IMG/VR virus record: IMGVR_UViG_3300027749_000038 | DNA length: 64,000 nt | Origin: a virus | Strand: one strand, 5' to 3' | Shown: in pieces, positions 2,208 to 19,810 of the stretch | How positions within the stretch are numbered: the stretch's first letter is position 1 | Layout of the letters: the number at the start of each line of letters is the position of its first letter | Made by a program: the position numbers and the translations under genes | Notes under the pieces: generated by a model | What the model was told of the DNA's origin: nothing | The model's input: the letters and a program-made list of their open reading frames with translations, nothing else | Databases searched by the model: none

Positions 2208-2229
2208 CTATTTGATAAATAAATATAGT

Positions 2230-2406
2230 ATGTCCTTTAATGCTTTTGTAAATTATATTCTAGATGAAATGGCTATGGTCAAGACCTCAGACCTCTCTAA
2301 TTGGCCTTATGAACACGGTGAAGGAGGAGGAGATCAAGTTCGTTCAAGGTCCAAGACAAAACCTACCAGAAGTCCGCTCAGTTCGGTAATCGCAAGCTAC
2401 AGGTGA
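2230..2406 (+). CDS. small late protein with CTS-like leader (MSFNAFVNYILDE|MA); possibly chimeric
   Basis: ATAAATA motifs at 2215/2219; 3' half overlaps a better-looking alternative frame. Confidence 0.45.
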   Translation: MSFNAFVNYILDEMAMVKTSDLSNWPYEHGEGGGDQVRSRSKTKPTRSPLSSVIASYR

Positions 2407-2502
2407 TTACCCGAAACCGCAAGAGCTATTCCCGTAAATCTAAATTCAAGGAGGATTTAGATTAGTCTGGAAGTTCCCACCAACCTGTATTACTATAACT
2501 CT

Positions 2503-2724
2503 ATGCTAAAAGAAATGATTGAAGCTATTAGGCAAACCGCTCGGGAACGTTATGAAACCTCTTATGGTTGGCAGGTCATTGAGGAATGTTATACAGACCA
2601 GGAATTAGAAGAAGATATAACAGAATATAATCTCCAGACAGTGGAAGAAGCTATTCTACATTTCGATAGCATTGCTAGACTCCGAACAGAACGATTTGAA
2701 GAAGCTCAATCAGAAATTTTTTAA
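2503..2724 (+). CDS. early acidic hypothetical protein
   Basis: ORF starts 6 nt after the TACTAT -10 box. Confidence 0.8.
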   Translation: MLKEMIEAIRQTARERYETSYGWQVIEECYTDQELEEDITEYNLQTVEEAILHFDSIARLRTERFEEAQSEIF

Positions 2725-2726
2725 TT

Positions 2727-3056
2727 ATGGCTACACGATCCTATATTGCAATCAAAGAAGAAGACAATTCTTACCAAGGTATCTATTGTCATTGGGATGG
2801 TTATCCATCTGGAGTTGGTGCTACATTAGCAGAACATTATAAACTTCAAGATAAAGTTAAAGTGTTGATTAGTAAAGGCGGTTTATCTAGCTTAGGACCC
2901 ACTCTTAAGGAAAGTGAGTTTTATACAGACCGCGGAGAAGATCTTAGAGTAAATACATTTTCCAATTCAGATGAATTAAAAGTGTATGCTAAGGAATCTT
3001 GGTGTGAATATCTCTACATCTTTGAAGACGGAAAATGGTCCACTGAGAAGATTTGA
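2727..3056 (+). CDS. conserved phage early protein (MATRSYI...IYCHWDGYP family)
   Basis: Recognisable YCHWDGYP motif family of phage hypothetical proteins. Confidence 0.85.
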   Translation: MATRSYIAIKEEDNSYQGIYCHWDGYPSGVGATLAEHYKLQDKVKVLISKGGLSSLGPTLKESEFYTDRGEDLRVNTFSNSDELKVYAKESWCEYLYIFEDGKWSTEKI

Positions 3057-3092
3057 CGAGAGGTTCCCCACAACCTCAGCTAAGATATTTAC

Positions 3093-3323
3093 ATGATGGA
3101 TTCCAAACAATACGACGCAGCACTCCTCCGCCTCTTCACCCTCAGCAACAAATACATCGTTCCTGGTTCTAAAGAGGACCGAGAGTTCCGGGAATTGTCT
3201 ATGCAGGTCGAAGCCTATCAGGACTCTCATAACCAGGAAAGTCAAGACGAATACGAGGTCCGATGCCTCCAGCAGGAGATGGACTCCTTCGAGGACCGTT
3301 TCCTCGCTTCCATGGAGCGATAA
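3093..3323 (+). CDS. early hypothetical protein
   Basis: Follows the promoter copy at 3058. Confidence 0.75.
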   Translation: MMDSKQYDAALLRLFTLSNKYIVPGSKEDREFRELSMQVEAYQDSHNQESQDEYEVRCLQQEMDSFEDRFLASMER

Positions 3324-3326
3324 GCG

Positions 3327-3917
3327 TTAAAACTTATCACGTTTAGATATATTATCCTTTGCCCATAACGGTTGAAGGTTAGTATAATGATTGGCCTTTT
3401 TAACTTCTTCTGGATTTGATAGGTCAAAGCTAGTTAGAGGTTTGATATGGTCTATGTGCCAAGTGTATAAACCATAATTCTCCCAAGACATACCTTCTTT
3501 GAATTGAGATTCTATATGTTTGACCACTTCTTCTAAAGGACATCCGAAGGTTTCTTTTGTTCTAATGGTTTTACCAGTAGCAGTTTTCTTTAAGACATCT
3601 TGAATTCTATTTCGGAGATTACATAATAACCTATAAGCCGGATCATTTGCTTTACGTTGTTTGTGATATTCATTACGGTATTGTGGGTTCTTTGAATGCC
3701 ACTTTATCATATTTGCCTTCACTCTCGGTTTGATTACATCCTTATTGTTTTCATAGTATTTTTTAGAATAACTGGAATAGTATTCTTTTCTAGAGATGTA
3801 TCTACAAGATTTGCACTTTGTTCCCTTTCCGTTCTCCGGAAAGTATTCAATAGATTTTTGTTCAGAACAAACTGAACAAACTTTTACGAGATTGGTGGTA
3901 TGGTTATTAGTTGACAT
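3327..3917 (-). mobile_element. free-standing HNH homing endonuclease (paralog of 15400..15984)
   Basis: N-terminal CxxC/CxxC, C-terminal WHIDHIKPL...NHYTNLQPLWAKDN; antisense to the early array; ATAAGTA motif upstream. Confidence 0.88.
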
Positions 3918-3931
3918 AAGCATAAATACTT

Positions 3932-3992
3932 ATCTCCAGGGACCGGGTATTGGTTAACATAAGCAATTAAACGAGCAAAGGTCCCTGGAGAT
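3932..3992. repeat. 13-bp perfect inverted repeat with 35-nt loop upstream of the HNH gene
   Basis: atctccagggacc (3932-3944) / ggtccctggagat (3980-3992). Confidence 0.95.
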
Positions 3993-4040
3993 TCTTTTTG
4001 AGGTGAGGTTCCCCGTAACTTGGGTTATGATTATTTCAAG

Positions 4041-4505
4041 ATGAGAAACACATTCACGCCCACGCAAGCCAATCAGAAACAGCACAATCGCAACGTCATT
4101 GACGTCCTCAGCTACGCCCTCGCGCATGCTGAACGAGGGACGTTGTTTACTCCTTCTAATTGTAATAACATTCCAGAGGTTGTTGTAGGAGGAGAGCAGA
4201 ATGGAGTGGTCACTTATGATACTCCTGGGAAGTTCTCTTTACCTACGAAGATCAATGGCAACCCAGTTCCTCAGAAGCATGCAGGCTTCAAGGTCCGTAC
4301 GAGGATTGTTAAGGTCCAGTCTCCTGGGAATGGAGCCTATGCTTTCAAGGTTAAGACGGGAAGAGATCTTGAAGTCACGGTGTTTTGTAATAGGCTCCAG
4401 GATGAGGGGGTGTATTACTCTTGTGAAGCTAATTGGAAGCAGGGAACTGAAGTTCTCGGGAAGATCCAATATCGCATCAACCCAAATTTAGTGACGCTTG
4501 AATAG
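4041..4505 (+). CDS. early hypothetical protein
   Basis: Start reassigned to ATG 4041 behind the promoter copy at 4003. Confidence 0.75.
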   Translation: MRNTFTPTQANQKQHNRNVIDVLSYALAHAERGTLFTPSNCNNIPEVVVGGEQNGVVTYDTPGKFSLPTKINGNPVPQKHAGFKVRTRIVKVQSPGNGAYAFKVKTGRDLEVTVFCNRLQDEGVYYSCEANWKQGTEVLGKIQYRINPNLVTLE

Positions 4506-4543
4506 AGCTTGCGGTTCCCCATAACCTCAGCTAAGATATTAAC

Positions 4544-5452
4544 ATGATGAAAGTAATTAAAGCAGCTACGAAGTTCCAACGCGTTGGTGAGATTGTTGTT
4601 CCGGATGTTTTTAATCGCCGGTTCAAGACAGGAGTTAATGATTTGGATGTAGCTTTGGGTGGAGATGGATTTGTTCCTGGTTCTACCTTTACCTTAGCTG
4701 GAGAGCCTGGAGCTGGTAAGACCACTTTGCTCCTCCAGGTTTTAGAATTGTTAGAAAAGTCTGGAAAGCATACTGCTTATATCTCCGGAGAAGAATCTAT
4801 CTATCAGTTAGCTTTTGTAGCTCATCGTCTACAATTGCAGAAGGTCTCTATTGCTAATATGACTTGTATCGAAGATATCTTTGATTCGGTTAAGGAGAAT
4901 AATTTCGGTATGATTGTTTTAGATTCTCTTCCTTCTCTTCGTTCTCGTGATGAAGATTTGAGAGGTAAAGCTCTAGAAGAATATCTTGCTAATTATATTA
5001 CCGCTACCGCTAAAGAATATGAAGTGGTTGTAGGTATTGTTCTTCATATTACTAAGCAAGGAAAGTATAAGGGTTCTACTCTTCTTCCTCATTCTGTAGA
5101 TGCTAATATCATGCTTCGTAAGTCAGAAGAAGATTATGCGGTTCGAGAAATTGAAGTAACGAAGAATCGTTTCGGTAGTGCTGGTTTTACCGTGTTTCCT
5201 ATATCTAATACCGGATTCGTATTTGAATCTTTGGAAGCATCAGATGAAGAAGGTCCTAAGGTTTCTAAAGCTAAGAAGACCTCTGATGATGTCTTAGAAT
5301 ATGTATCCAGTCATGGATCTATCAATGCTAGTGAAGCTGCTAAAGTGATTGGAGATGTATCTAAGGTACAGAAGATTATGAAAGATCTAGTGAATGCTGG
5401 ATTGCTTAATCGAGAAGGTCGCGCAGCTAATACGGTTTGGAGCGCTGCATAG
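4544..5452 (+). CDS. radA: RadA/Sms-like RecA-family ATPase lacking the Zn finger and Lon-like domain; probable C-terminal winged helix
   Basis: Walker A GEPGAGKT, YISGEES, Walker B IVLDS, KNRFG motif. Confidence 0.85.
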   Translation: MMKVIKAATKFQRVGEIVVPDVFNRRFKTGVNDLDVALGGDGFVPGSTFTLAGEPGAGKTTLLLQVLELLEKSGKHTAYISGEESIYQLAFVAHRLQLQKVSIANMTCIEDIFDSVKENNFGMIVLDSLPSLRSRDEDLRGKALEEYLANYITATAKEYEVVVGIVLHITKQGKYKGSTLLPHSVDANIMLRKSEEDYAVREIEVTKNRFGSAGFTVFPISNTGFVFESLEASDEEGPKVSKAKKTSDDVLEYVSSHGSINASEAAKVIGDVSKVQKIMKDLVNAGLLNREGRAANTVWSAA

Positions 5453-5595
5453 ACTAGCGATTCTGCGCGCTATAACGCGATTGTACAGGCTTTGTTGTCT
5501 CCTTCGATAGAGGAGCACAGGCCTCCTCTCAAAGCCTTTGTAACTCAGTTTTTCAGTTCTTGCGTTTCCCCATATCCTCTGCTAAGATTATCACA

Positions 5596-6036
5596 ATGAA
5601 AGTAACAATCACCACCACACGCGAAGTTAATCAATCCGGACGTTCCAAGATGGGACGGAGTCTTATCTATATCAAATCTCCGTTGGATGATCTCACGGAT
5701 AAGTTTGCTTGTAATTACGGAGTATATGGTTTGAAGTTTAAGAGCAAGACCTGGAATAAAGTCTGTCGTCAAGTTAATAAGACTCACATTGTTGAATTGA
5801 AGAAGTTGTTTCCAGAAGCTTTGGAGATTAAGTTCTCCGCTAAGGCTGGATGTAATTGTGGATGCAGCCCTTCCTACGTAATGAAACATGAACCCAATCA
5901 ATGGGGTAAAAACTTCTGGGTGAATATCGAAGCTTCTGAAGTAGAATTGAGTATGATATGGAGTAGTATCAATTGTCTTCGGTTCCAATTAGAATTGAAG
6001 AAGGAGATCCGAGATCACGAGACCGTTGCTGCTTGA
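5596..6036 (+). CDS. early hypothetical protein (AGCNCGCSP motif)
   Basis: Start reassigned to ATG 7 nt after the -10 box; stop overlaps the next -35. Confidence 0.8.
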   Translation: MKVTITTTREVNQSGRSKMGRSLIYIKSPLDDLTDKFACNYGVYGLKFKSKTWNKVCRQVNKTHIVELKKLFPEALEIKFSAKAGCNCGCSPSYVMKHEPNQWGKNFWVNIEASEVELSMIWSSINCLRFQLELKKEIRDHETVAA

Positions 6037-6068
6037 GGTTCCCCACATTAGCCTTTATTATCTTAATA

Positions 6069-6296
6069 ATGAACGAACAAATCACCTCCACAGTCTTCTG
6101 CCTCTTCTATGACAAGCAATATGAAGGCTCAGATCTCCTGGGTATCTTCCTTACGAAAGCAGAAGCTGAGACAGCTCGACAGACAGAGCTAGCTCGCCAC
6201 CTTAAACATCTTCCAGAAGATGAGCAAGAAGACGAACGAGAGTACTTCGAAGTGATCTTATGCATCACTGAAGTGCCAGTAGGCAAACTCCGGTAA
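6069..6296 (+). CDS. early small protein (VFxLxxxxxEGSDLLGIFxTKAEA family)
   Basis: Behind the promoter copy at 6033. Confidence 0.8.
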   Translation: MNEQITSTVFCLFYDKQYEGSDLLGIFLTKAEAETARQTELARHLKHLPEDEQEDEREYFEVILCITEVPVGKLR

Positions 6297-6336
6297 TCTT
6301 CTTGCAGTTCCTCGTATAAACCGTTAAGATATTTAC

Positions 6337-6552
6337 ATGATGAAGAACATGATTGATCCAAATTGGAACCTCCTCGCAGAAAATCAATTAGTCGGGGATG
6401 GATGTGGGTTTTGGGTTTTCCGGGACCTGTATGAAACTCAAGAGGGAAAGCGAGTTTCTGTTAAGAAGAGCAAGACCATTTGTGAAAAAGTGTATAAGAA
6501 TTCTGGGAAGACCGAAGCCCAGATCCTGGAAGAAAATCTCCTGAGCAAGTAA
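6337..6552 (+). CDS. early hypothetical protein
   Basis: Behind the promoter copy at 6302. Confidence 0.8.
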   Translation: MMKNMIDPNWNLLAENQLVGDGCGFWVFRDLYETQEGKRVSVKKSKTICEKVYKNSGKTEAQILEENLLSK

Positions 6553-6590
6553 GCCTGGCAGTTCCCATTATAAACCCCTAAGATATTTAC

Positions 6591-6950
6591 ATGATGAAAG
6601 CACAGAAAAACACGTTAATCGCAAGCGCAGACAAGATGACCATTCGGTATCGGGAAGCTATGATGGATTTCCTGAATGATACCCAAGGAGATCAATCAGT
6701 AGAAGATTTCGCTCGAGACCTTCTTAATCTAAGCAGAGCTCTTCAGAATCTTTCTTCTAAGGTTTCTAATACATCTTTAATAGCTTTCAAAGATGAATTA
6801 GCTGCTGGATATACTATGATGATGTTTGATAGTAAAGAGTTTGATCAGCTAGAAGCTTGGAGCGTTGCTGGAGAAGATTTCCAGATTGTTATCTTCCGCG
6901 AAGATGGATCTCCAGTAGGTGTTGTTCAAAAGAAAGAAACCAACTGGTAA
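6591..6950 (+). CDS. early hypothetical protein
   Basis: Behind the promoter copy at 6556. Confidence 0.8.
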   Translation: MMKAQKNTLIASADKMTIRYREAMMDFLNDTQGDQSVEDFARDLLNLSRALQNLSSKVSNTSLIAFKDELAAGYTMMMFDSKEFDQLEAWSVAGEDFQIVIFREDGSPVGVVQKKETNW

Positions 6951-7028
6951 GATTTGTTATACCTATGATTATTCTAATCTTATTTTGGTTTGTTTTTATG
7001 TTACACTTTCAGGATAAGTAATAAAAAT

Positions 7029-7526
7029 ATGAGAAACAAAGATACTATTTTATTAGAACAAGCTTATGAAGCAGTCTATAAACAAAAGACTCTTAATGAA
7101 TCTATAAGCCAAGACGAAGCTAATAATCTTATACAAGGTTTTAATATGCTTGGACCCCGTAAACAAAAGGCATTTGAAGATTTACAAGGTTTAGTTGGTA
7201 AAGAAGTATCTTTGTCTAGGGCCACAAGACTCAAACAATCTACTGGTTACGGGCGCGATGATGGTAGCGCAACAGTTCCTGGTTCAGGTGGTAGTGTTGC
7301 TCATACAGAGACAGAATCAGAGGATAGTGTATTCGCACAAGGTGTTATCCAAGACGTTAAACAATCTTCTGGTGAAGATGATTACACCAAGAATGGTAAT
7401 TTGATTTTAACCATTAACGATCAAGACTATAATGTTAATCAAGGGACCACAGTTAAGGTAAAGTTCTTGGAAGATTCTACAGCTGAAGTTCATGCAGCCG
7501 GTGGTAGAAGTTTCTACAATCAGTAA
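7029..7526 (+). CDS. putative virion-internal protein with MRNKDTILLEQAY leader
   Basis: ATAAGTA at 7014; leader shared with five other genes. Confidence 0.75.
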   Translation: MRNKDTILLEQAYEAVYKQKTLNESISQDEANNLIQGFNMLGPRKQKAFEDLQGLVGKEVSLSRATRLKQSTGYGRDDGSATVPGSGGSVAHTETESEDSVFAQGVIQDVKQSSGEDDYTKNGNLILTINDQDYNVNQGTTVKVKFLEDSTAEVHAAGGRSFYNQ

Positions 7527-7527
7527 C

Positions 7528-8073
7528 ATGAGAACCAAAGATTCTATTTTATTAGAACAGGCTTATGCAAAGGTATTGGAGTCTAATGCTTTGAGCGTTA
7601 ATAAGGCAAAGGTTAATAGAGACCCAGAAGTCCTGGCAAAGATGTTTAAGAACCTTTCTACTAGAGCTGAGTTCTTTGGTTCTATACACGGTTTAGCTTT
7701 TGGAGAAGAAAATTGGTCTAGAGAGAAGTCTATTAGTAAAGACCTAAAGAATGGAAATCTCCAAGATCTATTGATGGAAGCTCCTCAAGTAATTAAAGAT
7801 TTAGCCAATCAAGGATATGATTGGACTCGTATCTTTCTCAGCACACATAAGGTATTAGACCCAGAACATCCAAACATGGGTCGTACAGCTCAACTAACTG
7901 ATATTACCAACACAGTTACTTTAATTCATAACTCTAGTCATATACTCATCAGAGCTTATGATTCATTTGGTATTATGCCATCTAAGGAATTGAAAGTAGA
8001 CAAGACAAGTATTCCAGGTGCTTTGAATAAAGCCGAGTCCTTGCTCGCGAGTCTCTACGGCGTTCAACAGTGA
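7528..8073 (+). CDS. putative virion-internal protein with MRTKDSILLEQAY leader
   Basis: Shared leader; 1 nt after the upstream stop. Confidence 0.75.
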   Translation: MRTKDSILLEQAYAKVLESNALSVNKAKVNRDPEVLAKMFKNLSTRAEFFGSIHGLAFGEENWSREKSISKDLKNGNLQDLLMEAPQVIKDLANQGYDWTRIFLSTHKVLDPEHPNMGRTAQLTDITNTVTLIHNSSHILIRAYDSFGIMPSKELKVDKTSIPGALNKAESLLASLYGVQQ

Positions 8074-8104
8074 CCTTCCCCACATCATCCTGTAAGATAT
8101 TTAC

Positions 8105-8383
8105 ATGATGAAAAAGAACATTCGTGTTGAAGCAGTAAAAGAAGCGCTCCGTAATCCTTATACGTTTCCAGGAGCTTATCCATTAACCTTTGTAGCATAT
8201 GACGGTCGCTTATGTGGTAAGTGTGTTCGCAGTAACTTCCGAGCTGTGGTTAATGATACCAGGGATAATAAGGGTCCATGGAACCTACATGTAGATGTCC
8301 TCTGGGAAGGGGTAGCTTATTGTAATGATTGCGGAACAGAGATTGAATCCGCTTATGGGTCGGTTGAAGAGGAGGTAGAATAA
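8105..8383 (+). CDS. early protein with CxxC...CxxC (Zn-ribbon-like)
   Basis: PYTFPGAYP, CGKC, CNDC; promoter copy at 8070. Confidence 0.8.
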   Translation: MMKKNIRVEAVKEALRNPYTFPGAYPLTFVAYDGRLCGKCVRSNFRAVVNDTRDNKGPWNLHVDVLWEGVAYCNDCGTEIESAYGSVEEEVE

Positions 8384-8384
8384 T

Positions 8385-8606
8385 ATGACTAAAGAACCAT
8401 CACAAATTATCTTGCAAGTTGCAGCAGCTTATGGCTTTGAAGTAAAGTATGTAGAACCTTTGGATAAGTGGATCATCAAAGCCAAATTGTCTGGATGGTC
8501 TGGAGTTGAATTCTATTGGGATTCTACCTATAATGAACAAGACTTCTTTGATGAATTGAGATCTGCCTTTAATCAAGAAGGAGTAGAAAAACAAATCACA
8601 TACTAA
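8385..8606 (+). CDS. hypothetical protein
   Basis: 73-aa ORF 1 nt after the upstream stop. Confidence 0.7.
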   Translation: MTKEPSQIILQVAAAYGFEVKYVEPLDKWIIKAKLSGWSGVEFYWDSTYNEQDFFDELRSAFNQEGVEKQITY

Positions 8607-8607
8607 T

Positions 8608-8832
8608 ATGAACGTAATAAAAGCAAATACCTATACCTTCTTTCTTGGCTTCCTAGAAGATGATGAATTCTGGAGTGTATCTCAATTTGATGATCAAGAC
8701 AAAGCTCAAGATGCTTTTGAACATTATCGAATGGCTTATCCTAAACGCATTGTCCAATTGATTCAAGAGATCAAGATGCATAAAGTATTGGAGACCCATT
8801 ACCCGATCGGTCAAACCCTTCGGCATGATTAG
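8608..8832 (+). CDS. hypothetical protein
   Basis: 74-aa ORF 1 nt after the upstream stop. Confidence 0.7.
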   Translation: MNVIKANTYTFFLGFLEDDEFWSVSQFDDQDKAQDAFEHYRMAYPKRIVQLIQEIKMHKVLETHYPIGQTLRHD

Positions 8833-8870
8833 TTCTTGTGTTTCCCCATTACCTTCGCTAAGATATTTAC

Positions 8871-9116
8871 ATGATGAAAATCAAATCAAAACAAAAGCTC
8901 CGCATCATTCGTCACTTCCCAACTAGTGAGACCAGCTCTGGAAGTCATAATATGATTGTGAATTGTACCTACGGTAAGCTGGATGAAACTGTGGACTATT
9001 GGACCGCATGTGCTGTAGAAGAAGCGGTACAGACTATTGCGAGCGATCGATTCCAATATAAAGGAATCAGTGCTACCTTCCTAGGGATTAGTCTTCAGGT
9101 TGATTTGATTGATTAA
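8871..9116 (+). CDS. early hypothetical protein
   Basis: Promoter copy at 8836. Confidence 0.75.
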   Translation: MMKIKSKQKLRIIRHFPTSETSSGSHNMIVNCTYGKLDETVDYWTACAVEEAVQTIASDRFQYKGISATFLGISLQVDLID

Positions 9117-9120
9117 CATT

Positions 9121-9270
9121 ATGACTGAACATCAAGTAGAAATCTGGGTAGAGATGCAAATAGATCGATTGGATATGAAGTATACTCTTGGTCGCCTTAC
9201 AGAGGAAGAGTACCGTTTAGAGGTCCAAAAGATCAGTAAAGAGGCCGAAAAACTCTTGAAAAATGGGTAA
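9121..9270 (+). CDS. 49-aa hypothetical protein (MTEHQVEIWVEMQIDRLDMKY...)
   Basis: Short ORF read manually, below the track cutoff. Confidence 0.6.
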   Translation: MTEHQVEIWVEMQIDRLDMKYTLGRLTEEEYRLEVQKISKEAEKLLKNG

Positions 9271-9335
9271 AAAGTAGTTAAAAAGCAAAGAAAAATGCTT
9301 AAAAACTGGGAAAAAGTGCTTAAAAACTGGGAAAA
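9248..9335. repeat. nine helically phased A4-5 tracts (intrinsically bent DNA)
   Basis: Tracts start at 9248, 9259, 9269, 9280, 9291, 9301, 9311, 9322, 9332; mean spacing 10.5 bp. Confidence 0.9.
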
Positions 9336-9424
9336 GTTTGATAGAATTGATAATTCTCTAGAAGCAAATAGAAAAAATACAGAAATACGTAGGTTTTCTC
9401 TTTCTGTTTTAACTAAATAATAGA

Positions 9425-10393
9425 ATGAGAGATCGAGACACTATTCTATTAGAGCAAGCCTATCAAAGAGTCTTATTAAAAGAAGATCCGGATAGCACTA
9501 TAAGTCAGGCTTCCGGGACGAGATTACAATATAATGATAAGGATGCTAGACCCTTTGGGTTTGTGAATATAGATCAACCTCGTACAGTGGCTAGACTCGG
9601 TATTACTTTTAGAGGATTTGGACCTAAGTGGCATAATAAATTGTACTTGGCTCCTGCCATAAAATTTAAGACTCCGGCAGCAAAGAGTGGTTCTGAAGGA
9701 GCCTTTGTGGATGAAGAAGAAGATTATTATGGAGAAGAAGCCTGGACTCATAGTAGATTGTTGGATGAGGCTTTGGCTGATATCTTTAATAGTCCTATTG
9801 GAATTATAGAAGGGGGAGTATTCAATAAACAAATCAGAGATCCGGATTTAATAAACAAGACTCTGGATTTGTCTAATCCTTTTGCGGACCAGGTGGAATT
9901 GGACCGAATGAAAAAAGACTTTATAAGAGTTCAAGGATGGAGTGTGGGTTCTAGATCTTTCTTAGCTCCGGCTGGTAGAGTGTGGACTGAGGCAAAGGTG
10001 ATTTCTTTTTGGGCGGTTAGACAGGAAGTTAAACCGGAACATTTGAACAAGGTATTTGCAGGCTTGGGAATTCCTATGGAAGAGGCTTATGGATATGAAC
10101 TAGAATTTGGAGGAGATGATTATCCGGCTGAAACAGTTGGTGAGTTTCTTAGAGGTTCTAAGGTTAATACTTTGTCTAAAGAAGAACAAGAAGCTAAAGA
10201 TAAGAAAGCAGCTGAAGATCAAGCTAAAGCTCATGGAGCTGCAGCAATAGGAACTAAGGATAAAGATGTGCAAAAGATTATAGATGCAAGAAAACAAGCG
10301 ATGGCTAGGATGAATCATCAATTGAGAAACCAAGGAACTATACCTTCTTTACCGGAGAGACAAGCCACTATGACTAGTGAGTCCTGTAAATAA
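9425..10393 (+). CDS. putative virion-internal protein, paralog of 10711..11625
   Basis: MRDRDTILLEQAY leader, LLKE|DPD; near-identical C-terminus to the paralog. Confidence 0.8.
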   Translation: MRDRDTILLEQAYQRVLLKEDPDSTISQASGTRLQYNDKDARPFGFVNIDQPRTVARLGITFRGFGPKWHNKLYLAPAIKFKTPAAKSGSEGAFVDEEEDYYGEEAWTHSRLLDEALADIFNSPIGIIEGGVFNKQIRDPDLINKTLDLSNPFADQVELDRMKKDFIRVQGWSVGSRSFLAPAGRVWTEAKVISFWAVRQEVKPEHLNKVFAGLGIPMEEAYGYELEFGGDDYPAETVGEFLRGSKVNTLSKEEQEAKDKKAAEDQAKAHGAAAIGTKDKDVQKIIDARKQAMARMNHQLRNQGTIPSLPERQATMTSESCK

Positions 10394-10397
10394 TAAT

Positions 10398-10691
10398 ATG
10401 AAGACAAAATTACAAAGTCAGTTTGAAAATGTATATCGTTCGGTGATCAACGAACAACAAGGTCCTAGTGTGTATGCGATATTTGATGCAAATGCATCAG
10501 ATACGAGTATGGATCTTCTTATTGGTTTGTATCTAGATAAAGGACAAGCCGATGAAGCATGCAGAGAATATGAACAAGAGAACTTTAGTGACACAGGATA
10601 TGGCCCAAGACCTTATGTAATTTCACTTCCTACAGGTGGAGCAGCCAGTGACTCATATCTTCGCAGTGCAAAAGATCATATGCAACACTAG
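10398..10691 (+). CDS. late small protein with leader (..VINE|Q), distantly similar to 6069..6296
   Basis: GTAAATA 5 nt before ATG; VYAIF...LLIGLYLDKGQADEA. Confidence 0.7.
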   Translation: MKTKLQSQFENVYRSVINEQQGPSVYAIFDANASDTSMDLLIGLYLDKGQADEACREYEQENFSDTGYGPRPYVISLPTGGAASDSYLRSAKDHMQH

Positions 10692-10710
10692 GTATAAATA
10701 AATAAAAGGT

Positions 10711-11625
10711 ATGAAGTCCAAAGACCAACAACTCTTAGAAGAAGCTTACATGAAGATTCTTCTAAAAGAAGATCCAGATAATACAATTGTTCCAAAAACT
10801 AATCACAGAGTAAATTGGGATGATGATGATGCAAGAGCATTTGGATATGTTAATATAGACAAAGAGCTTAAACTTTACATAAAGACTCCTCTTGTCTTTA
10901 AGGACTTTGGGCCAAAATGGCATAATAAATTTTATATTCAATATGAAGACGACCAGCAGGAAACTCATGGAGATCTTATGAAAAGAATTATGAAAGAGGT
11001 GTTCAAGAGTCCTCAAGGTATTATTGAAGGAGGAATATTTGATCATGTTCTTCCAGCCAAATTTTCCTCATATCTAGGAAAAGCAATAGATTTATCTAAG
11101 AATCCTTTTTCTCCAGAAGATTTCTTTACTCTTACTAAGGAGCTAATATTCAAAAAATTGAACAGGACCATTAATGCTAGAGAATTTTTAGTTCCTGCAG
11201 GACGTATTTGGACTGATGCAAATGTTGTTTCTTTCTGGGCAAGACGAAGAGAGGTCACAGCAGAACATTTGAATGCTTTGTTTGAAGGTGTATATATTCC
11301 CATGGAACAGGCTTATAAATTCCATATTGAGTTCATAGGGGATCTTTATGGACCGACCCAAACCGTTGGAGAATATCTTTCCAATACCAAAGCTCCAATC
11401 TATTCCAAAGAAGAACAAGAAGCTAGCAACAAGAAAGCAGCAGAAGATATGGCTAAAGCTCATGCAGCTGCAGCATTGGGTACTAAAGATAAGGATGTGC
11501 AAAAGATTATAGATGCAAGAAAGCAAGCGATGGCTAGGATGAATCATCAATTAAGAAACCAAGGGACTATACCATCCATAGCTACTACACAACGAGCTAT
11601 GACTAGTGAATCTAATAAGTACTAA
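10711..11625 (+). CDS. putative virion-internal protein, paralog of 9425..10393
   Basis: MKSKDQQLLEEAY leader; TATAAATA upstream. Confidence 0.8.
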   Translation: MKSKDQQLLEEAYMKILLKEDPDNTIVPKTNHRVNWDDDDARAFGYVNIDKELKLYIKTPLVFKDFGPKWHNKFYIQYEDDQQETHGDLMKRIMKEVFKSPQGIIEGGIFDHVLPAKFSSYLGKAIDLSKNPFSPEDFFTLTKELIFKKLNRTINAREFLVPAGRIWTDANVVSFWARRREVTAEHLNALFEGVYIPMEQAYKFHIEFIGDLYGPTQTVGEYLSNTKAPIYSKEEQEASNKKAAEDMAKAHAAAALGTKDKDVQKIIDARKQAMARMNHQLRNQGTIPSIATTQRAMTSESNKY

Positions 11626-11626
11626 G

Positions 11627-12448
11627 ATGAGAGATCGTGATACCATTCTATTAGAACAAGCCTATCGGTTGATCTTAGAAACTAAAGATAGACATAAGAA
11701 AAACTCTATCGTACAAGATATAGTTGGGTTTGGTAGATGGGAATGGGTTGATAGACAATTTTTTCCTTGTACAGAAGAAGGAGAAAAACAAGCAGAAGCC
11801 TTAGTAGATAGTTTTGAATTTGGTGGTAATGTTAGATATACCAGAGGCAAGTATTTGGCTATTGAAATACAGATTCCAGAAGAGGATGTAAGAGAATATG
11901 CCAGAAGAACCTTAGCTGGAGAAAAGGGTTTAACTCTTCCACCCAAACCTCAAATACCAGAGATAAGATTTGAGAACATTAAAAACCTAAAGGCAGAGAG
12001 TTCTCATTTAATGTATGACTTCGGTGGTTCTGAAAGTATAAAGCTTCAACCTCAACAAGCCACTATTACTGATATTGTGGTAGTAGATAAATCAAAACCT
12101 AGGACTGAAGAGTTGGAGGATGCTAATGATAAGACTCTTTACTTTGTCAAGGCTAATCTTTTTGCTCCTATTACTCTACCCAAACCAGCCCAAGAGATCC
12201 ATGTTGGCAAGTTGTTTAGATATGCCAGGGTTCCACAGAAGATCAATGCCTTGGTAGATAACATAGACAGACACTTATTAAAAGGGGGTACCCTTAGTAT
12301 ATTTGAAGACTCTGATGAAGACTCAGGTTCTAATTATGAACCGCTGATGAACAGGTTAATACAAACCTTTGAGACCATAGGTTATACGTTAATAAAGACT
12401 GAGTCTATAAACTCAGATAAAATAGAGATGACTATTTTTAGAAAATAA
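11627..12448 (+). CDS. putative virion-internal protein, possible SAM-methyltransferase-like C-terminal fold
   Basis: MRDRDTILLEQAY leader; LMYDFGGS and LLKGGTLSIFE resemble class I MTase strands (weak). Confidence 0.65.
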   Translation: MRDRDTILLEQAYRLILETKDRHKKNSIVQDIVGFGRWEWVDRQFFPCTEEGEKQAEALVDSFEFGGNVRYTRGKYLAIEIQIPEEDVREYARRTLAGEKGLTLPPKPQIPEIRFENIKNLKAESSHLMYDFGGSESIKLQPQQATITDIVVVDKSKPRTEELEDANDKTLYFVKANLFAPITLPKPAQEIHVGKLFRYARVPQKINALVDNIDRHLLKGGTLSIFEDSDEDSGSNYEPLMNRLIQTFETIGYTLIKTESINSDKIEMTIFRK

Positions 12449-12450
12449 TC

Positions 12451-12480
12451 ATAAATAATCATAAATAATCATAAATAATA
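12451..12480 (+). repeat. 3x 10-bp tandem repeat ATAAATAATC of the late promoter motif
   Basis: ataaataatc ataaataatc ataaataata directly before ATG 12483. Confidence 0.9.
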
Positions 12481-12482
12481 TT

Positions 12483-12785
12483 ATGAAGTCCAAAGACCAA
12501 CAACTCTTAGAAGAAGCTTACAAGAAAGTTATAGAAGGTCATCAAATTATGACTCCTAAACAGGAAGTTCGTTATCAGGAACTAACCGATGCTGGTTATG
12601 AATTTGACTATTGGAAAGAAGAGAACCTTGTTATGACCCGGAAAGAAAGAGGAACAGAACATACTCGGAACTTGGACTCTTTAATGGTTCTTCCAGATGG
12701 AAGATGTATGGATTTAGATCCACAAGAGGATGAAGAACCGGAAAGGAATGATTGGGATGAGTGGGATGATATGACTCTACGTTAA
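12483..12785 (+). CDS. putative virion-internal acidic protein with MKSKDQQLLEEAY leader
   Basis: First 40 nt identical to those of 10711. Confidence 0.78.
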   Translation: MKSKDQQLLEEAYKKVIEGHQIMTPKQEVRYQELTDAGYEFDYWKEENLVMTRKERGTEHTRNLDSLMVLPDGRCMDLDPQEDEEPERNDWDEWDDMTLR

Positions 12786-12960
12786 TGAAAAGACTTTGGT
12801 ATCTATAGCAGACCAGGTGGCTATCATTAGAACGATTATCATTTTAACATACCTTATTACCAATTTGTTTATAGTGGCAGGGATTATCAGACATTGGAAT
12901 ACTTGAGTTAATAGCAACGTGGGTGATAATACATTATAGAATAATAAGGTAAAGTTTAAT

Positions 12961-13260
12961 ATGGACCAAGAGTTTTTAAGCATAGAAGAATTCTTACAAC
13001 AAATTCGATGGAGAGTACAACATACTAGTAAGGCTATAGATGATAAGAACTATGAGCTAGCAGAAGAACATAGTAAGATAGTAAATGATGTATTACTACC
13101 CACAGCTTTAAGATTTAACTTTATAGCAGAAGCTATAAGAACGGTATCAGAAGAAATGGAAAAGATAATGGCTTTGGATACTAGTAAAGCAAAGAAGAGA
13201 AAAGCCTTTACGATAACGAGCGACAATCTAACCGAAGAGATACCAAAGGAATTGGTATAA
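12961..13260 (+). CDS. hypothetical helical protein
   Basis: 99-aa ORF. Confidence 0.65.
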   Translation: MDQEFLSIEEFLQQIRWRVQHTSKAIDDKNYELAEEHSKIVNDVLLPTALRFNFIAEAIRTVSEEMEKIMALDTSKAKKRKAFTITSDNLTEEIPKELV

Positions 13261-13697
13261 ACAACCGATAGATAAATTAAGGTAATAGCAACGCAGTCTA
13301 TATTAACGCATACCTTAATAGAGCCAAGGTTTATAGTACCTCCTTTATTAGAGCATCCCTAATACTACAGACCTCTTAACTAATAGAACTAGGATAATAA
13401 AGACCCTAGGTTCCAGAGTATCCTAAGAGATAAACAAAGTAAGGTCTGACCTTAATAGTAAAGTCCTACCTAACAAGAGAAAAAAGACAAAGGGTAATGT
13501 AAAGGTAAAAGTAAATGGTTGGTGAAGAAGAGATTAAAGACAAAGAGTCAATAAAAAGGGTGATGTGAAGGTAATCAAGTACAGAAGAATGGTAAACCAA
13601 TGTATTAGCCTTAGGGAACTTACCTTAACTTCAACCAATTTCTACAAATGACTAATCGACTATTGCTTTCCCAGGGTCCCAAAGGTATAATAGAACT

Positions 13698-13907
13698 ATG
13701 TCCAACCCAACTAGTAATGAAGCAACGGAACCGAAAATCTGGGGTCCTATGGGTCGGAAGATCTATGAAATGGATCCTAATAGACCCCCCTCAGAATTGG
13801 CGATGTATGGAATCACCCCGACCAATACCCCCTTGAGTCCGGATGGATCAGCCCTCCTTTCCCCCTCTAAGGCGGAGGAGACTCTATACCCCCCGGAAGG
13901 GAGCTGA
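13698..13907 (+). CDS. early Pro-rich hypothetical protein
   Basis: TTGCTT-17 bp-TATAAT-6 nt-ATG. Confidence 0.6.
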   Translation: MSNPTSNEATEPKIWGPMGRKIYEMDPNRPPSELAMYGITPTNTPLSPDGSALLSPSKAEETLYPPEGS

Positions 13908-13981
13908 GTTCGATTCTCCCCTAGATCAGGAGATGAAAGATCCTCGTTGAGGTTCCCTCTATCATCCTCTATGATATTTAC

Positions 13982-14296
13982 ATGATGAAAAACACGATAG
14001 CTGACGCGAACGAAATTACGAACGAGATCTTCAATGAATACGAATACGATCTTCGAAACATATCTTTTAAAGAATGTTTAGAATTTGCGAAAGATTGTAC
14101 AAAAGATCAATGGTTAGAAGAAGCTCAAGATTTCATTAATGCAGATATTGAAGCCTGGACATTAGAAAATAATGATTTAGAAGTTGGAGAAGATACAGAA
14201 GAAGCTCAAGTTTTATTAGTTAAATTGTTAGATGTCGAATATGATAAGATCTTAAAACATCTGATGAAAGATGTTACGATCGAATACGCTAACTAA
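13982..14296 (+). CDS. early acidic hypothetical protein
   Basis: Promoter copy at 13947. Confidence 0.8.
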   Translation: MMKNTIADANEITNEIFNEYEYDLRNISFKECLEFAKDCTKDQWLEEAQDFINADIEAWTLENNDLEVGEDTEEAQVLLVKLLDVEYDKILKHLMKDVTIEYAN

Positions 14297-14316
14297 ATCA
14301 TAGAAAGAAACATAAG

Positions 14317-14577
14317 ATGAAATCTATCAAGATCGAAGCGAAGCGCGTAACTGAAAAGCTCTTTACACAAGTAAAGTATCAAAAGTATTCTCCAGAGAAT
14401 CTAGAATCTGCTTACTATGAAGTATATTCATATTGGAGAATCTTTAATAACGATGTAGATATACGTCTCGTCTTAGACGATCAAGTTCTATTTGATAACG
14501 GCGAGATCGTTAATTACGATAGTAAGCATCCGCTCGTTCTCATCAATACATTAGTAGATCCAGAGACATATCGATAG
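14317..14577 (+). CDS. hypothetical protein
   Basis: 86-aa ORF. Confidence 0.7.
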   Translation: MKSIKIEAKRVTEKLFTQVKYQKYSPENLESAYYEVYSYWRIFNNDVDIRLVLDDQVLFDNGEIVNYDSKHPLVLINTLVDPETYR

Positions 14578-14647
14578 CACATTCCGTGGAACCTCACGAC
14601 AAAAAGAAGTTCGTGAGTTTCCCCCTATAAACCTCTAAGATATTTAC

Positions 14648-15295
14648 ATGATGAAAAAAGTATATCGTTTGAAGCTCGACGCCAAAGCCAAAGCCGCAAA
14701 GGCTAAGATCAAGGAAGTCTCTGGTGGAGACCAGTTCAAGAACCTTAAGGATTGGGTGGTCTTCTTTAAAGAGAATGAGCGCCTCCCTTCCCAGAAGATC
14801 ACCTGTGCTTCTTGCAAGACTAAGCAGACCTCGATGTTCGGAGACAACCTGAAGCGAACGCTTCCCAAGTACGGGTCTATCGAAGGTCTGCTTACGAAGT
14901 TCGAATGCAGTGATTGTCGTAAGGCTAAAGCCCCGGCGAAAGAAGCTAAACAAGTTAAGGTTCCGAAGAGTGGTAAAGCTAAGGCAGGTGATATTAACGT
15001 ATCAGGTAATACTGTAGAGGATTACCTAACCGTGGATGATATCGAGGACCGTAAAGAGAAGGTCCGTGCTACTCTACCCAAGTTTGATCCGGATCGTAAG
15101 CCAGTTAAGGTCAATTTCAAAGACCAAGACGAAGTAGAAGAGCTTACCCGGGGAGTTTGTCAGCGTCCCGATATCTATCTGGATGCCGGTTGTTCCCAGT
15201 GCCCCATTTCCCAGTACTGCATCGCGGGATGTAAGGACATGAGAAGGAAGCCAGAGGATACCCGGAAGTCCCAGGGACCGAAGCGTAAGAAGTAA
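14648..15295 (+). CDS. early basic Zn-binding protein (CASC, CSDC, C-terminal Cys cluster)
   Basis: Multiple CxxC motifs, Lys-rich; promoter copy at 14613. Confidence 0.8.
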   Translation: MMKKVYRLKLDAKAKAAKAKIKEVSGGDQFKNLKDWVVFFKENERLPSQKITCASCKTKQTSMFGDNLKRTLPKYGSIEGLLTKFECSDCRKAKAPAKEAKQVKVPKSGKAKAGDINVSGNTVEDYLTVDDIEDRKEKVRATLPKFDPDRKPVKVNFKDQDEVEELTRGVCQRPDIYLDAGCSQCPISQYCIAGCKDMRRKPEDTRKSQGPKRKK

Positions 15296-15312
15296 TTTCA
15301 TCATGGGCGGAG

Positions 15313-15381
15313 AACTTCTTAGGAAGGCCTTCCCTCTTGTGTGAGAGGGACGTTTTTCATCATGTACCTTCCTAAGAAGTT
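15313..15381. repeat. 15-bp perfect inverted repeat enclosing a 7-bp hairpin, between convergent genes
   Basis: aacttcttaggaagg/ccttcctaagaagtt; inner tccctct/agaggga. Confidence 0.9.
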
Positions 15382-15399
15382 TCTTTCTCTTATATATGT

Positions 15400-15984
15400 T
15401 TAGTGTGTAGCACCTTTAGAAAGATTGTCTTTAGCCCATAACGGTTGGAGGTTGGTATAGTGATTAGCTCTTTTAACTTCTTCTGGGTCTAATAGATTAA
15501 AACTAGACAATGGTTTGATGTGATCGATATGCCAAGTATACAAACCATGATTTTTCCAAGACATACCTTCTTTGAATTGAGATTCGATATGTTTAACCAC
15601 TTCTTCTGTAGAACATCCAAAAGTTACTTTTGTTGTTCTGACAACTTTGCCGTTATATATGTTCTTCAGAACCTTATCTATTCTATTTCTAAGACTACAC
15701 AACAATTTATAAGAGGGATCTTTTGCTTTGCGTTGTTTGTGATAGTTATATGTTTTGAGAGTTTTTCTATAAGCTCTTCGTCTCTCTTTGAAGGATTCTC
15801 TTGATCTTTGAATCTTTTGTTGAGTTCTTACCTTTTCTCGATTGTTTGCATTATATGTTCTACAATTTAAGTATCTACACTTTTTACATTGATTTCCCAC
15901 TTTATAAAAAAGATCAATGGATTTTAGTTCTGAACAAATAGAACAAACTTTAGCGAGATCGGTAGTATGGTTATTAGTTAACAT
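15400..15984 (-). mobile_element. free-standing HNH homing endonuclease (paralog of 3327..3917)
   Basis: Same N-terminus (TNNHTTxLxKVCSxCSE) and WHIDHIKPL...NHYTNLQPLWAKDN. Confidence 0.88.
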
Positions 15985-15998
15985 AGGTATAAATATTT

Positions 15999-16059
15999 AT
16001 CCCCAAGGACCGGGTTTTGGTTAACATAGGAAATTAAATGAGCGAAGGTCCTTGGGGAT
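15999..16059. repeat. 13-bp perfect inverted repeat with 35-nt loop upstream of the HNH gene
   Basis: atccccaaggacc / ggtccttggggat; homolog of 3932-3992 with two compensatory pair changes. Confidence 0.95.
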
Positions 16060-16181
16060 TTGATTCCCTTCCCGGGAGTTTTCATTCCCTGCCCAATTAT
16101 CTATAACTCGTTCTCAATCAAGGTTCTTCCCCTAGAGAAAAAAAGATGGAAGTTCCCTGTACTTTGACTCATAATATTCTC

Positions 16182-16358
16182 ATGATTCGTTCCTTGTCCC
16201 TCTTCGCGTTCCTGGTGTCCCTCACCTACCTCACCTGCCCGGACATCCTCACCTACGCAACCCTCACCGTCCTAGCAGTCCTTTCCCTGGCGATCCACCT
16301 TTCCCACTACGTCCTCCTGGGACTGTTGTTCTTCGCAGTCATCCTCATCGCTCGATAA
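16182..16358 (+). CDS. early small membrane protein
   Basis: Very hydrophobic 58 aa; promoter copy at 16147. Confidence 0.7.
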   Translation: MIRSLSLFAFLVSLTYLTCPDILTYATLTVLAVLSLAIHLSHYVLLGLLFFAVILIAR

Positions 16359-16396
16359 GCCTTGTGTTTCCCCTCTTCCTCCTCCATAATAGAAAC

Positions 16397-16549
16397 ATGA
16401 TTAACGAATACGACATGTCCACCGTAGACAAGCTCAACCTCATCGCTCAGGTGTTCGGGAAGATCGCGATCAACTTCTGGCCGGTGATTGTCCTGGGAAT
16501 CGTTGCAGCAGTGATCCTCCACAAGCATGAGACCCGCAGGACGCGCTAA
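16397..16549 (+). CDS. early single-TM protein
   Basis: Promoter copy at 16362; hydrophobic segment followed by a basic tail. Confidence 0.7.
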   Translation: MINEYDMSTVDKLNLIAQVFGKIAINFWPVIVLGIVAAVILHKHETRRTR

Positions 16550-16557
16550 TTATTAAC

Positions 16558-16788
16558 ATGGGACTCGAGAAAGCAATTCAATATGGTAAAGAACACCGTC
16601 AGCCTTATCGCGGAAGTAAAGCTTGGGATTCTCATTGTAGGAATCACAACGCTTGTGACTATTGTAGGAACAATCGACTTCACGCCGACCAAGTCCGGGA
16701 ATATAGTGCCCGAGAAGAACCCCTGGATTGGGAACTCGACCAGAGCCTCTATCCAGAGTGGTTTGAGCTAGACGGAGTCGCGGAATAG
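16558..16788 (+). CDS. conserved phage protein (KAIxxGKEHRxPYRGSKA..CRNH..C.YC family)
   Basis: Recognisable Cys/His motif family of unknown function. Confidence 0.8.
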   Translation: MGLEKAIQYGKEHRQPYRGSKAWDSHCRNHNACDYCRNNRLHADQVREYSAREEPLDWELDQSLYPEWFELDGVAE

Positions 16789-16825
16789 AGTGGAGGTTCC
16801 CCACATTAACCCTTAAGATATTAGC

Positions 16826-17011
16826 ATGATGAACGAAACAGAGAAGAAGTACAAAGCCAACGTCAAGCGCCTCGAACGGTTCGCCAAAGCTTTCACCAAG
16901 CTGAAGGTGAAGTTCCCCGAGGTCGTAGTCAGAGGAGACCAGAACGGATTTGCCCAGGCGACCATCCACGGTCTCCCAGGAGAGCAAGCCCGGGCCTATT
17001 TGAGCAACTAA
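16826..17011 (+). CDS. early hypothetical protein
   Basis: Promoter copy at 16791. Confidence 0.75.
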   Translation: MMNETEKKYKANVKRLERFAKAFTKLKVKFPEVVVRGDQNGFAQATIHGLPGEQARAYLSN

Positions 17012-17050
17012 GCCTTGCGGTTCCCCACATTAACCCTTAAGATAATCACA

Positions 17051-17248
17051 ATGAGTTACAAAGTCCTCACCCGTTCACTCGCCACCGACAAGTACCCCTA
17101 CCGGACCCATTCCGAGCACGAGACCCTCTGGCAGGCTATGTCAGTAGCTTCCCGGCTTGAGAAGAACACCGAGCTGGATGTCCTGGTCGAGCTCACCGAC
17201 AATGAGATCGTCAAAGTTCCCTTCAACGTCCTCGCTCTTGAAGCTTGA
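17051..17248 (+). CDS. early hypothetical protein
   Basis: Promoter copy at 17015. Confidence 0.75.
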   Translation: MSYKVLTRSLATDKYPYRTHSEHETLWQAMSVASRLEKNTELDVLVELTDNEIVKVPFNVLALEA

Positions 17249-17280
17249 GCTTCCCCACATAAACCCCTAAGATAAACACC

Positions 17281-17466
17281 ATGACAGACATCCTCGAATT
17301 CCGCAAGCAACTCGCAGCCAAGCACCCTAAGCTCGAACAGGTGATGAGAGGGCCAGCGCCTTCCCTCAAACTGCAAGCCACGATGCAGAAGTTCAGCCAG
17401 CAGCTCTGCTTGGCTAGGGCCAAGCAGAGGGAAGGAGTGGTCCTCAAGACTCCCGAGCGTGAGTAA
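17281..17466 (+). CDS. early hypothetical protein
   Basis: Promoter copy at 17245. Confidence 0.7.
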   Translation: MTDILEFRKQLAAKHPKLEQVMRGPAPSLKLQATMQKFSQQLCLARAKQREGVVLKTPERE

Positions 17467-17504
17467 GTGTTGAGCTTCCCCCTTATAACCCTTAAGATAT
17501 TTAC

Positions 17505-17888
17505 ATGATGAATGACACGATGATTGCCCGCACCGAACTCGAAGAGCTGATGGATGAGTATTGTGACTACCACAAGGACGTCCACGGTGTCAAGGCTCGT
17601 TGGATCTACAACACCGGAGTCACGGTAGAGGAGCTGAAGAGGATGCTCGCTAGCCTGGAACGTCAGTACCACGAGCAGGTCGAGTTCGAGCGCAAGCAGT
17701 CGGCTCGCAATGAGCAGGCAGCTCGGGAGCAGATCCGGGTCCTCATGCAGCACGGGGCTCAGGACGTGGCGATGGCGATCCGCTGGTTACACGATGCTCA
17801 GGACACCCAAGGGGACAATCGGTTCCTCGACTTCGACCTGGGATGTACCTACGGCTTCATCGACAGCCTTCTCAAGAACGGCCTCTAA
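17505..17888 (+). CDS. early conserved hypothetical protein (Y.DYHKDVHGVKAR motif)
   Basis: Promoter copy at 17470. Confidence 0.8.
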   Translation: MMNDTMIARTELEELMDEYCDYHKDVHGVKARWIYNTGVTVEELKRMLASLERQYHEQVEFERKQSARNEQAAREQIRVLMQHGAQDVAMAIRWLHDAQDTQGDNRFLDFDLGCTYGFIDSLLKNGL

Positions 17889-17932
17889 GAGAGGTGTTGA
17901 GCTTCCCCAGTATCTCCTTTAAGATCTTAACA

Positions 17933-18169
17933 ATGAGCAATACGATTACTCAAGCAGACCTCTACAACGACTACCTCACCGCCTTTCGAGCCTTGCACCC
18001 TTGTGACGCCAGAGACCTGAGACGCTGTGCCAGGATAGAGCTTCTGAGTCGCGGGGACCGAGAGATTAATTCTGGTGACGTAGACAACCTGGTGTATACC
18101 TGGTTCAAACTATACGAAAGCTTCAGCCAGGAAGTGATCGACGGACTCCGAGACTATTACCTCGACTAA
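17933..18169 (+). CDS. early hypothetical protein
   Basis: Promoter copy at 17897. Confidence 0.75.
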   Translation: MSNTITQADLYNDYLTAFRALHPCDARDLRRCARIELLSRGDREINSGDVDNLVYTWFKLYESFSQEVIDGLRDYYLD

Positions 18170-18241
18170 AGACTTTAGTCGGGGTAAATTACCTCGACTA
18201 AGGTGTTGAGGTTCCCCAGTACATCCTTTAATATCTTAACA

Positions 18242-18595: not shown

Positions 18596-18633
18596 TCCTT
18601 GCAGTTCCCCACTTAGTCCTCTAATATTATTAC

Positions 18634-18945: not shown

Positions 18946-18979
18946 GCTTCCCCACATCCTCAGCTAATATAGATACAAG

Positions 18980-19798: not shown

Positions 19799-19810
19799 GC
19801 GGTGAGTCAA

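Follow-up and report, generated by a model that had tools for sequence, protein, structure and literature searches.

What does a short peptide do that opens six otherwise largely dissimilar proteins, encoded between positions 7029 and 12785 of a 64,000-nt stretch of virus DNA (IMG/VR record IMGVR_UViG_3300027749_000038)? We analyzed this stretch, hereafter the window, together with relatives of the six genes in other phages, and refer to each window gene by the position at which it starts. The peptide, which we call the leader, is probably the capsid targeting sequence (CTS) of this phage's lineage, that is, a packaging propeptide cut off by a prohead protease of the gp21 type. We favor a T4-style propeptide because the T4-like phages that carry the leader encode gp21, because leader genes recur in a cargo slot between gp21 and gp22, and because the bodies behind the leader avoid the cleavage motif [LIV]xE.

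Six genes share an N-terminal leader

A six-frame search of the window for LLE[QE]AY returned exactly six occurrences, each at codons 8–13 of an open reading frame (ORF) on the + strand (starts at 7029, 7528, 9425, 10711, 11627 and 12483; Table 1). The first 13 residues of all six proteins fit the pattern M[RK]x[KR]D[TSQ][IQ]LLE[QE]AY. When the ORFs of the window were scored with a profile hidden Markov model (HMM) of the leader, built on 30 columns, these genes reached 34–47 bits compared to 2.5 bits for the next-best ORF. Each protein also carries an [ILV]xE motif, the last residue of which falls at position 18–24. Over the first 40 nt, 10711 and 12483 are identical (40/40), and 9425 and 11627 agree at 36 positions. 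The bodies of 9425 and 10711 are paralogous (49% identity, E = 5e-106), whereas for the remaining pairs among the six proteins the alignment was limited to residues 1 to 17–34. A first-pass annotation of this DNA had described six genes with a common leader and an [IVL]xE site, set on mostly unrelated bodies. The six-frame and HMM searches confirmed the shared leader, only the 9425/10711 pair proved alignable beyond it, and the nucleotide identities quoted at that time were exact.

Two subtypes of the leader, A (MRDRDTILLEQAY) and B (MKSKDQQLLEEAY), are shuffled over these bodies. Gene 9425 combines subtype A with body X and 10711 subtype B with body X', while 11627 joins subtype A to body Y and 12483 subtype B to body Z. 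Within the window genome, nucleotide similarity between copies consists of a patch of 43–57 nt that begins no more than 13 nt before the ATG, and the shared unit is therefore the leader alone and not a promoter plus leader. The late promoter that the first-pass annotation had made part of a mobile module thus lies outside it. By eye, gene 10398 (MKTKLQSQFENVY) also appears to start with a degenerate leader; the leader HMM does not find it, and we rejected it as a further copy.

Spread and conservation of the leader

Using a degenerate back-translated pattern of the leader DNA, we identified 89 loci in IMG/VR with 110 leader ORFs and a single matching contig in 596 Gb of prokaryote genomes. The leader gene on this 7-kb contig (L128, CALBDR010000183.1) is genuine. 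The contig is binned to a Melainabacteria metagenome-assembled genome, which may reflect mis-binning of a phage fragment or hint faintly at the host. The leader HMM, a search proposed with the first-pass annotation, recovered the six window genes and, in a set of 1.84 billion representatives, 472 clusters (50% identity; E ≤ 1e-3), all of the matches being metagenomic hypothetical proteins. A search for loci related to gene 9425 returned none. The HMM match starts at residue 1 in 144 of the 150 best matches, and the other six comprise four proteins with a Met directly before the leader, one fusion and one tandem-leader protein. Dispersal onto unrelated bodies, expected from the window, was also found in the relatives: 112 proteins fell into 65 body clusters, and 286 proteins into 143. 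Bodies have a median length of 143 aa (range, 61–640 aa), and their isoelectric points span the whole scale.

The leader consensus, MK[ST]KDQxLLE[EQ]AYxK[VI]LxE, occupies the first ~18–20 residues, with L8 and E10 invariant. Also conserved, though not imposed by the search pattern, are K15, [VI]16, a hydrophobic residue at 17 and a Glu at 18–20, and a second [ILV]xE ending at residues 18–20 is present in 78% of leaders compared to ~13% expected. At invariant positions, Leu is encoded by each of its six codons and Ala by each of its four, indicating that the constraint acts on the peptide. The leader does not show the features of a Sec or Tat signal peptide, in which a short basic n-region leads into a hydrophobic h-region: its residues are charged and amphipathic (KDQxLLEEAYxK), and in only 3 of 293 proteins does a hydrophobic segment come next. 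A signal-peptide-like hydrophobic segment stands directly behind the leader in L028:1022-1507:-, L067:4262-4681:- and L078:227-688:+, one of which has a lipobox-like GAAC; removal of the leader from these proteins would expose a normal-looking export signal.

Carrier phages and a cargo slot in the head operon

All five complete genomes that carry the leader (200–227 kb) encode Peptidase_S77 (PF03420, the gp21 prohead protease), as do both carrier fragments that are at least 60% complete. The same five genomes, which were the ones searched for PF07068, all encode gp23; the carrier proteins are ~35% identical to the gp23 of any cultured phage, with cyanophages the nearest. The carriers form a deep clade of uncultured T4-like phages. 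Since the propeptide of gp23 ends in C[LI]xE in these phages, the [LI]xE specificity of gp21 has probably been retained in the clade. In two carrier genomes (L094/L095 in G004 and L126/L127 in G007), the gp21 gene is an open frame of 592–614 aa with two Peptidase_S77 halves ~1 kb apart, probably the result of an intein or another in-frame insertion.

At eight loci, no more than ~10 nt separate the gp21 stop codon from the start of a leader gene, behind which come a small basic ORF, gp22 and gp23. Only this immediate adjacency is informative, as gp21 was found anywhere in the leader locus at 10 of 89 loci, which is near chance. We counted six different bodies in this single gp21–gp22 slot. Four of the phages that have it share 82–91% homology through gp21 and ~40–60 nt into the leader gene; homology is then gone across the whole cargo body (470–860 nt) and is back at the cargo stop codon. 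Arrays of two to four leader-like genes stand beside gp21 or gp22 at three loci (L014, L054 and L009).

One carrier genome, G001, is syntenic with the window at 70–88% nucleotide identity. It has orthologs of 7029 and 7528, and different genes at window positions 9121–13600, the segment that holds the other four leader genes. The place of 9425 is taken in G001 by a 70-aa ORF starting with MEDREQLQLESIYEQLLKEE (G001:C1:66602-66814, minus strand; L115), which resembles a degenerate leader; a 222-aa ORF in a different frame overlaps with it.

Cargo bodies avoid the cleavage motif

We used depletion of [LIV]xE as a statistical proxy for the protease resistance of mature cargo. The ratio of observed to expected motifs was 0.83 in cargo bodies (cluster bootstrap 95% confidence interval: 0.74–0.92) compared to 1.15 in neighboring proteins of similar size. 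Ratios for [LIV]xQ, [LIV]xD and [LIV]xK in the cargo bodies were 1.19–1.28, so the depletion is specific to [LIV]xE. The mature T4 internal proteins IPI, IPII and IPIII contain no [LIV]xE, where 3.8 are expected. This statistic offers a general computational test for the exposure of a protein to prohead protease.

The leader as a putative packaging propeptide

If the leader is a CTS, the peptide would form an amphipathic helix that docks newly made cargo on the scaffolding core of the prohead, and formation of the gp23 shell would enclose the docked cargo. The gp21-type protease would then cut the leader at LLE-10, at the [ILV]xE at residues 16–20 or at both, and the mature cargo would remain in the head and enter the next host along with the DNA. 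Since any protein behind the leader would be loaded, cargo bodies could be swapped freely by recombination within the leader sequence, giving rise to hundreds of cargo families. We infer docking, packaging, cleavage, injection and the role of the cargo from the patterns described above.

Several observations weigh against a CTS. The stretch EAYxK[VI]L, beyond E10, is conserved as strongly as the first ten residues, to position ~17, and a pure 10-residue tag of the T4 type would have no need of it. Set beside MKTYQEFIAE, with which T4 IPII and IPIII begin, the leader has equal length to E10 and the same residue classes at positions 1, 2, 3, 7, 8 and 10, and with only ten residues to compare, the likeness cannot be put to a statistical test. 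There are no head genes within the window, the gp21 of which has to be deduced from relatives. Among the cultured phages of INPHARED, no match was obtained by megablast, by tblastn with gene 9425 or by tblastn with the 22-aa leader. The N-terminus of gp21 (for example, YRLLVEEPTYEVKYLVEE) resembles the leader by eye only; the leader HMM gave no match to it at E ≤ 10, and we did not use the resemblance as evidence. Finally, the window has no excess of the canonical late motif TATAAATA (6 copies on the + strand compared to 6.4 expected), and a late-promoter-like motif is also found upstream of nrdA and nrdB. For these last two reasons, late expression of the leader genes is no more than plausible.

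Diversity of the cargo

Few bodies have Pfam domains, examples being NUDIX in L014 and LRR in L007. The former is a 405-aa leader protein (L014:5421-6635:-) with a clear NUDIX domain (E = 6e-19), encoded in a three-gene leader-like array just upstream of gp21, and is a candidate packaged enzyme. Scans of the six window proteins against Pfam and PHROG gave nothing usable. The protein of 7528 had no match in Pfam, PHROG or Atlas; its gene begins 1 nt past the stop codon of 7029 and is the more conserved of the two in G001, with an ortholog 96% identical.

For the 10711 family, AlphaFold2 predicted the leader as a detached low-confidence helix (residues 4–17) ahead of a confident alpha/beta core (predicted local distance difference test (pLDDT), 75). 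On the basis of GRxW, SFW and xEF motifs, we considered an ADP-ribosyltransferase for the 9425/10711 body and dropped the idea, as fold and profile searches did not support it: Foldseek found no PDB match at E ≤ 0.001, a profile search against PDB sequences gave nothing, and the best VIA-align hit (Z = 4.1) covered helices only. The C-terminal ~60 residues of 9425 and 10711 (window 9951–10401 and 11177–11630) are far more alike than the remainder, with one 30-residue stretch identical. This tail, which is helical and Lys/Ala-rich and ends in MTSES, is kept throughout the family, pointing either to a functional module of its own or to gene conversion.

The body of 11627 is a lead only for a class I methyltransferase-like fold (Atlas features, 0.93; template modeling (TM) score, 0.47–0.57); its AlphaFold2 model is poor (pLDDT 50) and a profile search against PDB sequences came back empty. 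Shorter relatives of 11627 keep the leader and the C-terminal domain and are without residues ~20–117 (~95 residues).

In other phages, genes of the 9425/10711 type are fused in frame to the next leader gene (P0151, P0152, P0153 and P0001), giving the order body, internal leader, body; in P0151, the second body is homologous to window gene 12483. If real, such fusions would be polyproteins whose internal leader could be a substrate of the prohead protease. Two tandem leader copies near the N-terminus, seen in P0017 and P0120, look like scars of recombination within the leader. A further group of unrelated cargos (L033, L040, L060, P0016, P0058 and P0214) shares a basic motif, approximately KKKVNPWA[VI], with a Cys and then a Lys-rich tail behind it, which may be a small DNA-binding module.

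Table 1 Leader genes of the window and a repeat upstream of the sixth
Feature	Position	Strand	Length (aa)	Leader	[ILV]xE site (residues)	HMM score (bits)	Remarks
Leader gene 1	7029..7526	+	165	MRNKDTILLEQAY	LNE (22–24)	39.5	ATAAGTA upstream; G001 ortholog 68% identical
Leader gene 2	7528..8073	+	181	MRTKDSILLEQAY	VLE (16–18)		
Leader gene 3	9425..10393	+	322	MRDRDTILLEQAY	LKE (18–20)		Body paralogous to gene 4
Leader gene 4	10711..11625	+	304	MKSKDQQLLEEAY	LKE (18–20)		
Leader gene 5	11627..12448	+	273	MRDRDTILLEQAY	ILE (16–18)		
Leader gene 6	12483..12785	+	100	MKSKDQQLLEEAY	VIE (16–18)	47.4	Acidic C-terminus
Three tandem CATAAATAAT units	12450..12479	+					Directly upstream of gene 6 (12483); late-promoter-like

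Alternative explanations

The alternative that fares best, although we regard it as unlikely, is a permanent N-terminal helix that is never cleaved and serves as a docking or oligomerization handle to another part of the virion or to a host target. Both the conservation that runs past E10 to residue ~17 and the predicted amphipathic helix suit such a handle. However, if the bodies never met the protease, it is difficult to see why they should be depleted in [LIV]xE specifically; L8-x-E10, which is invariant, and the second [ILV]xE both correspond to gp21 sites, and the slot between protease and scaffold genes points to the prohead core.

It is quite improbable that the leader genes belong to an ordinary multigene family in which everything but a constrained N-terminus has become unrecognizable by divergence, without exchange of cassettes. 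Divergence from a common gene would account for the true paralogs 9425 and 10711 and for the many leader genes in tandem arrays, but not readily for bodies of such unequal length, some with unrelated Pfam domains (NUDIX and LRR), or for homology that breaks sharply past the leader between phages otherwise 82–91% identical. Body X is found under both leader subtypes (9425 and 10711), and each subtype on differing bodies. The tandem and internal leaders of P0017, P0120 and P0151 and the modular relatives of 11627, which keep the leader while missing ~95 residues, likewise argue against simple divergence.

A recognition tag for a modifying or degrading enzyme, comparable to the leader of a ribosomally synthesized and post-translationally modified peptide (RiPP) or to a degron, is very improbable: no neighbor family is widely shared (the top one is present at 13 of 90 loci), none is an obvious modifying enzyme, and the recurrent neighbors are gp21, gp22 and gp23. 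Least probable of all is conservation at the level of DNA or RNA, as a recombination site or translational operator at the start codon with the peptide as a by-product, which would explain why patches of 84–100% nucleotide identity are confined to the leader within the window genome but is excluded, as far as we can judge, by synonymous variation, with third codon positions varying freely across phages (entropy of 1.04 bits compared to 0 at second positions) while the peptide is invariant.

Sequences upstream of the leader genes

Leader genes have AT-rich sequences of the ATAA[AG]TA type 6–15 nt before the ATG. Across all loci, ATAA[AG]TA is present within 40 nt upstream of 49% of leader genes compared to 12% of other ORFs, and similar sequences also precede the tail-fibre genes of the window and gp21 in a relative. 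Among the six window genes, the canonical TATAAATA is upstream of 10711 only (10693–10700), ATAAGTA precedes 7029 and 11627, 9425 has only CTAAATAA and 7528 has none. The late motifs that the first-pass annotation credited to five of the six genes are a weaker point of that annotation.

The genes around them carry a repeated sigma70-like early cassette that the leader genes lack, in agreement with the first-pass annotation, which had placed the leader genes among early genes. About 25 small + strand genes (window 1650–19800) each follow a near-identical cassette made up of TTGAGG or TTGCGG, TTCCCC, a spacer, TAAGATAT, 4–5 nt and the ATG (often ATGATG). A cassette that ends 4–5 nt before the ATG implies leaderless or near-leaderless early mRNAs.

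Implications

If the leader works as a signal for capsid targeting, sequence alone would reveal the set of proteins injected by an entire clade of uncultured T4-like phages with genomes of ~200 kb. That set would hold hundreds of families, some of them enzymes, as candidate effectors of host takeover in the first minute or of anti-defence. The CTS principle of T4 would then reach far beyond the T-even coliphages, and a second, unrelated CTS could serve to load foreign proteins into other T4-type capsids.

An extended version of the packaging-propeptide reading is more tentative, and we consider it possible but doubtful. Here, besides addressing cargo to the head, the leader would provide the site of recombination at an integron-like slot of the head operon (in the order gp21, leader-cargo, small basic protein, gp22) and at satellite slots between early genes. 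Crossover in the leader would exchange the cargo, the prohead protease would separate the parts of in-frame fusions, and the several hundred cargo families would include NUDIX proteins and possibly methyltransferases. Were this version true, the leader proteins would be the largest sequence-predictable set of capsid-delivered effectors known.

Comparison with known systems

In T4, a CTS is described on IPI, IPII, IPIII and Alt and is removed by the prohead protease gp21 (Mullaney and Black 1996, as reviewed in PMC9026906 and PMC3012670). The N-terminal propeptides of the internal proteins, 10–19 residues long, load them onto the prohead core, with residues 4 and 7 important for targeting and residues 8 and 10 for processing (PMC9026906). 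The invariant L8 and E10 of the leader fall on these two processing positions, which supports a T4-style propeptide. Used as a tag, the T4 CTS loads foreign proteins (PMC9026906, PMC3012670, PMC2839356, PMC5694885). Like this sequence, the leader is a short N-terminal peptide on otherwise unrelated small proteins, follows the scheme M-K-[ST]-x-x-x-hydrophobic-[LI]-x-E with Glu at residue 10 and belongs to T4-like phages with gp21, gp22 and gp23, the bodies being poor in [LIV]xE here and free of it in T4. It differs in being longer (~18–20 residues), in its sequence, with an invariant LLE[EQ]AY, and in usually having two cleavage-type sites, and it is limited to an uncultured clade of ~200-kb phages known from sequence alone.

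The ejection proteins of phiKZ and SPN3US also have propeptides cut by a T4-related prohead protease, with a proposed role in head targeting, and their paralogs share N-termini (PMC5694885). These propeptides are 80–130 residues long and have another cleavage motif, whereas the leader is T4-sized.

The closest parallel at the level of loci is that of the T-even internal proteins, which are reported to be diverse, to have only the CTS in common and to lie in hypervariable loci (Repoila 1994, as cited in PMC3012670 and PMC2839356), with '>30 known variants' (PMC2839356). The first-pass annotation had proposed a portable packaging leader on arbitrary cargo and had called it an undescribed system. 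The first proposal gains from the gp21-encoding carriers, the gp21–gp22 slot and the avoidance of [LIV]xE, less the promoter. The second has to be withdrawn, as hypervariable loci encoding T-even internal proteins with nothing but the CTS in common are already published (PMC3012670, PMC9026906, PMC2839356). In the T-even phages and in the phages studied here alike, the loci are hypervariable and bodies are replaced while the N-terminal sequence is kept, as in window 9425–12785, where four leader genes lie in a segment that G001 lacks. In the phages studied here, by contrast, there are at least 472 clusters, a recurrent head-operon slot between gp21 and gp22, some NUDIX cargo and in-frame cargo-leader-cargo fusions. 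Most likely, therefore, the leader and its cargo represent a known type of system that is new in form and much expanded, a new sequence variant of the CTS and internal-protein system of T4.

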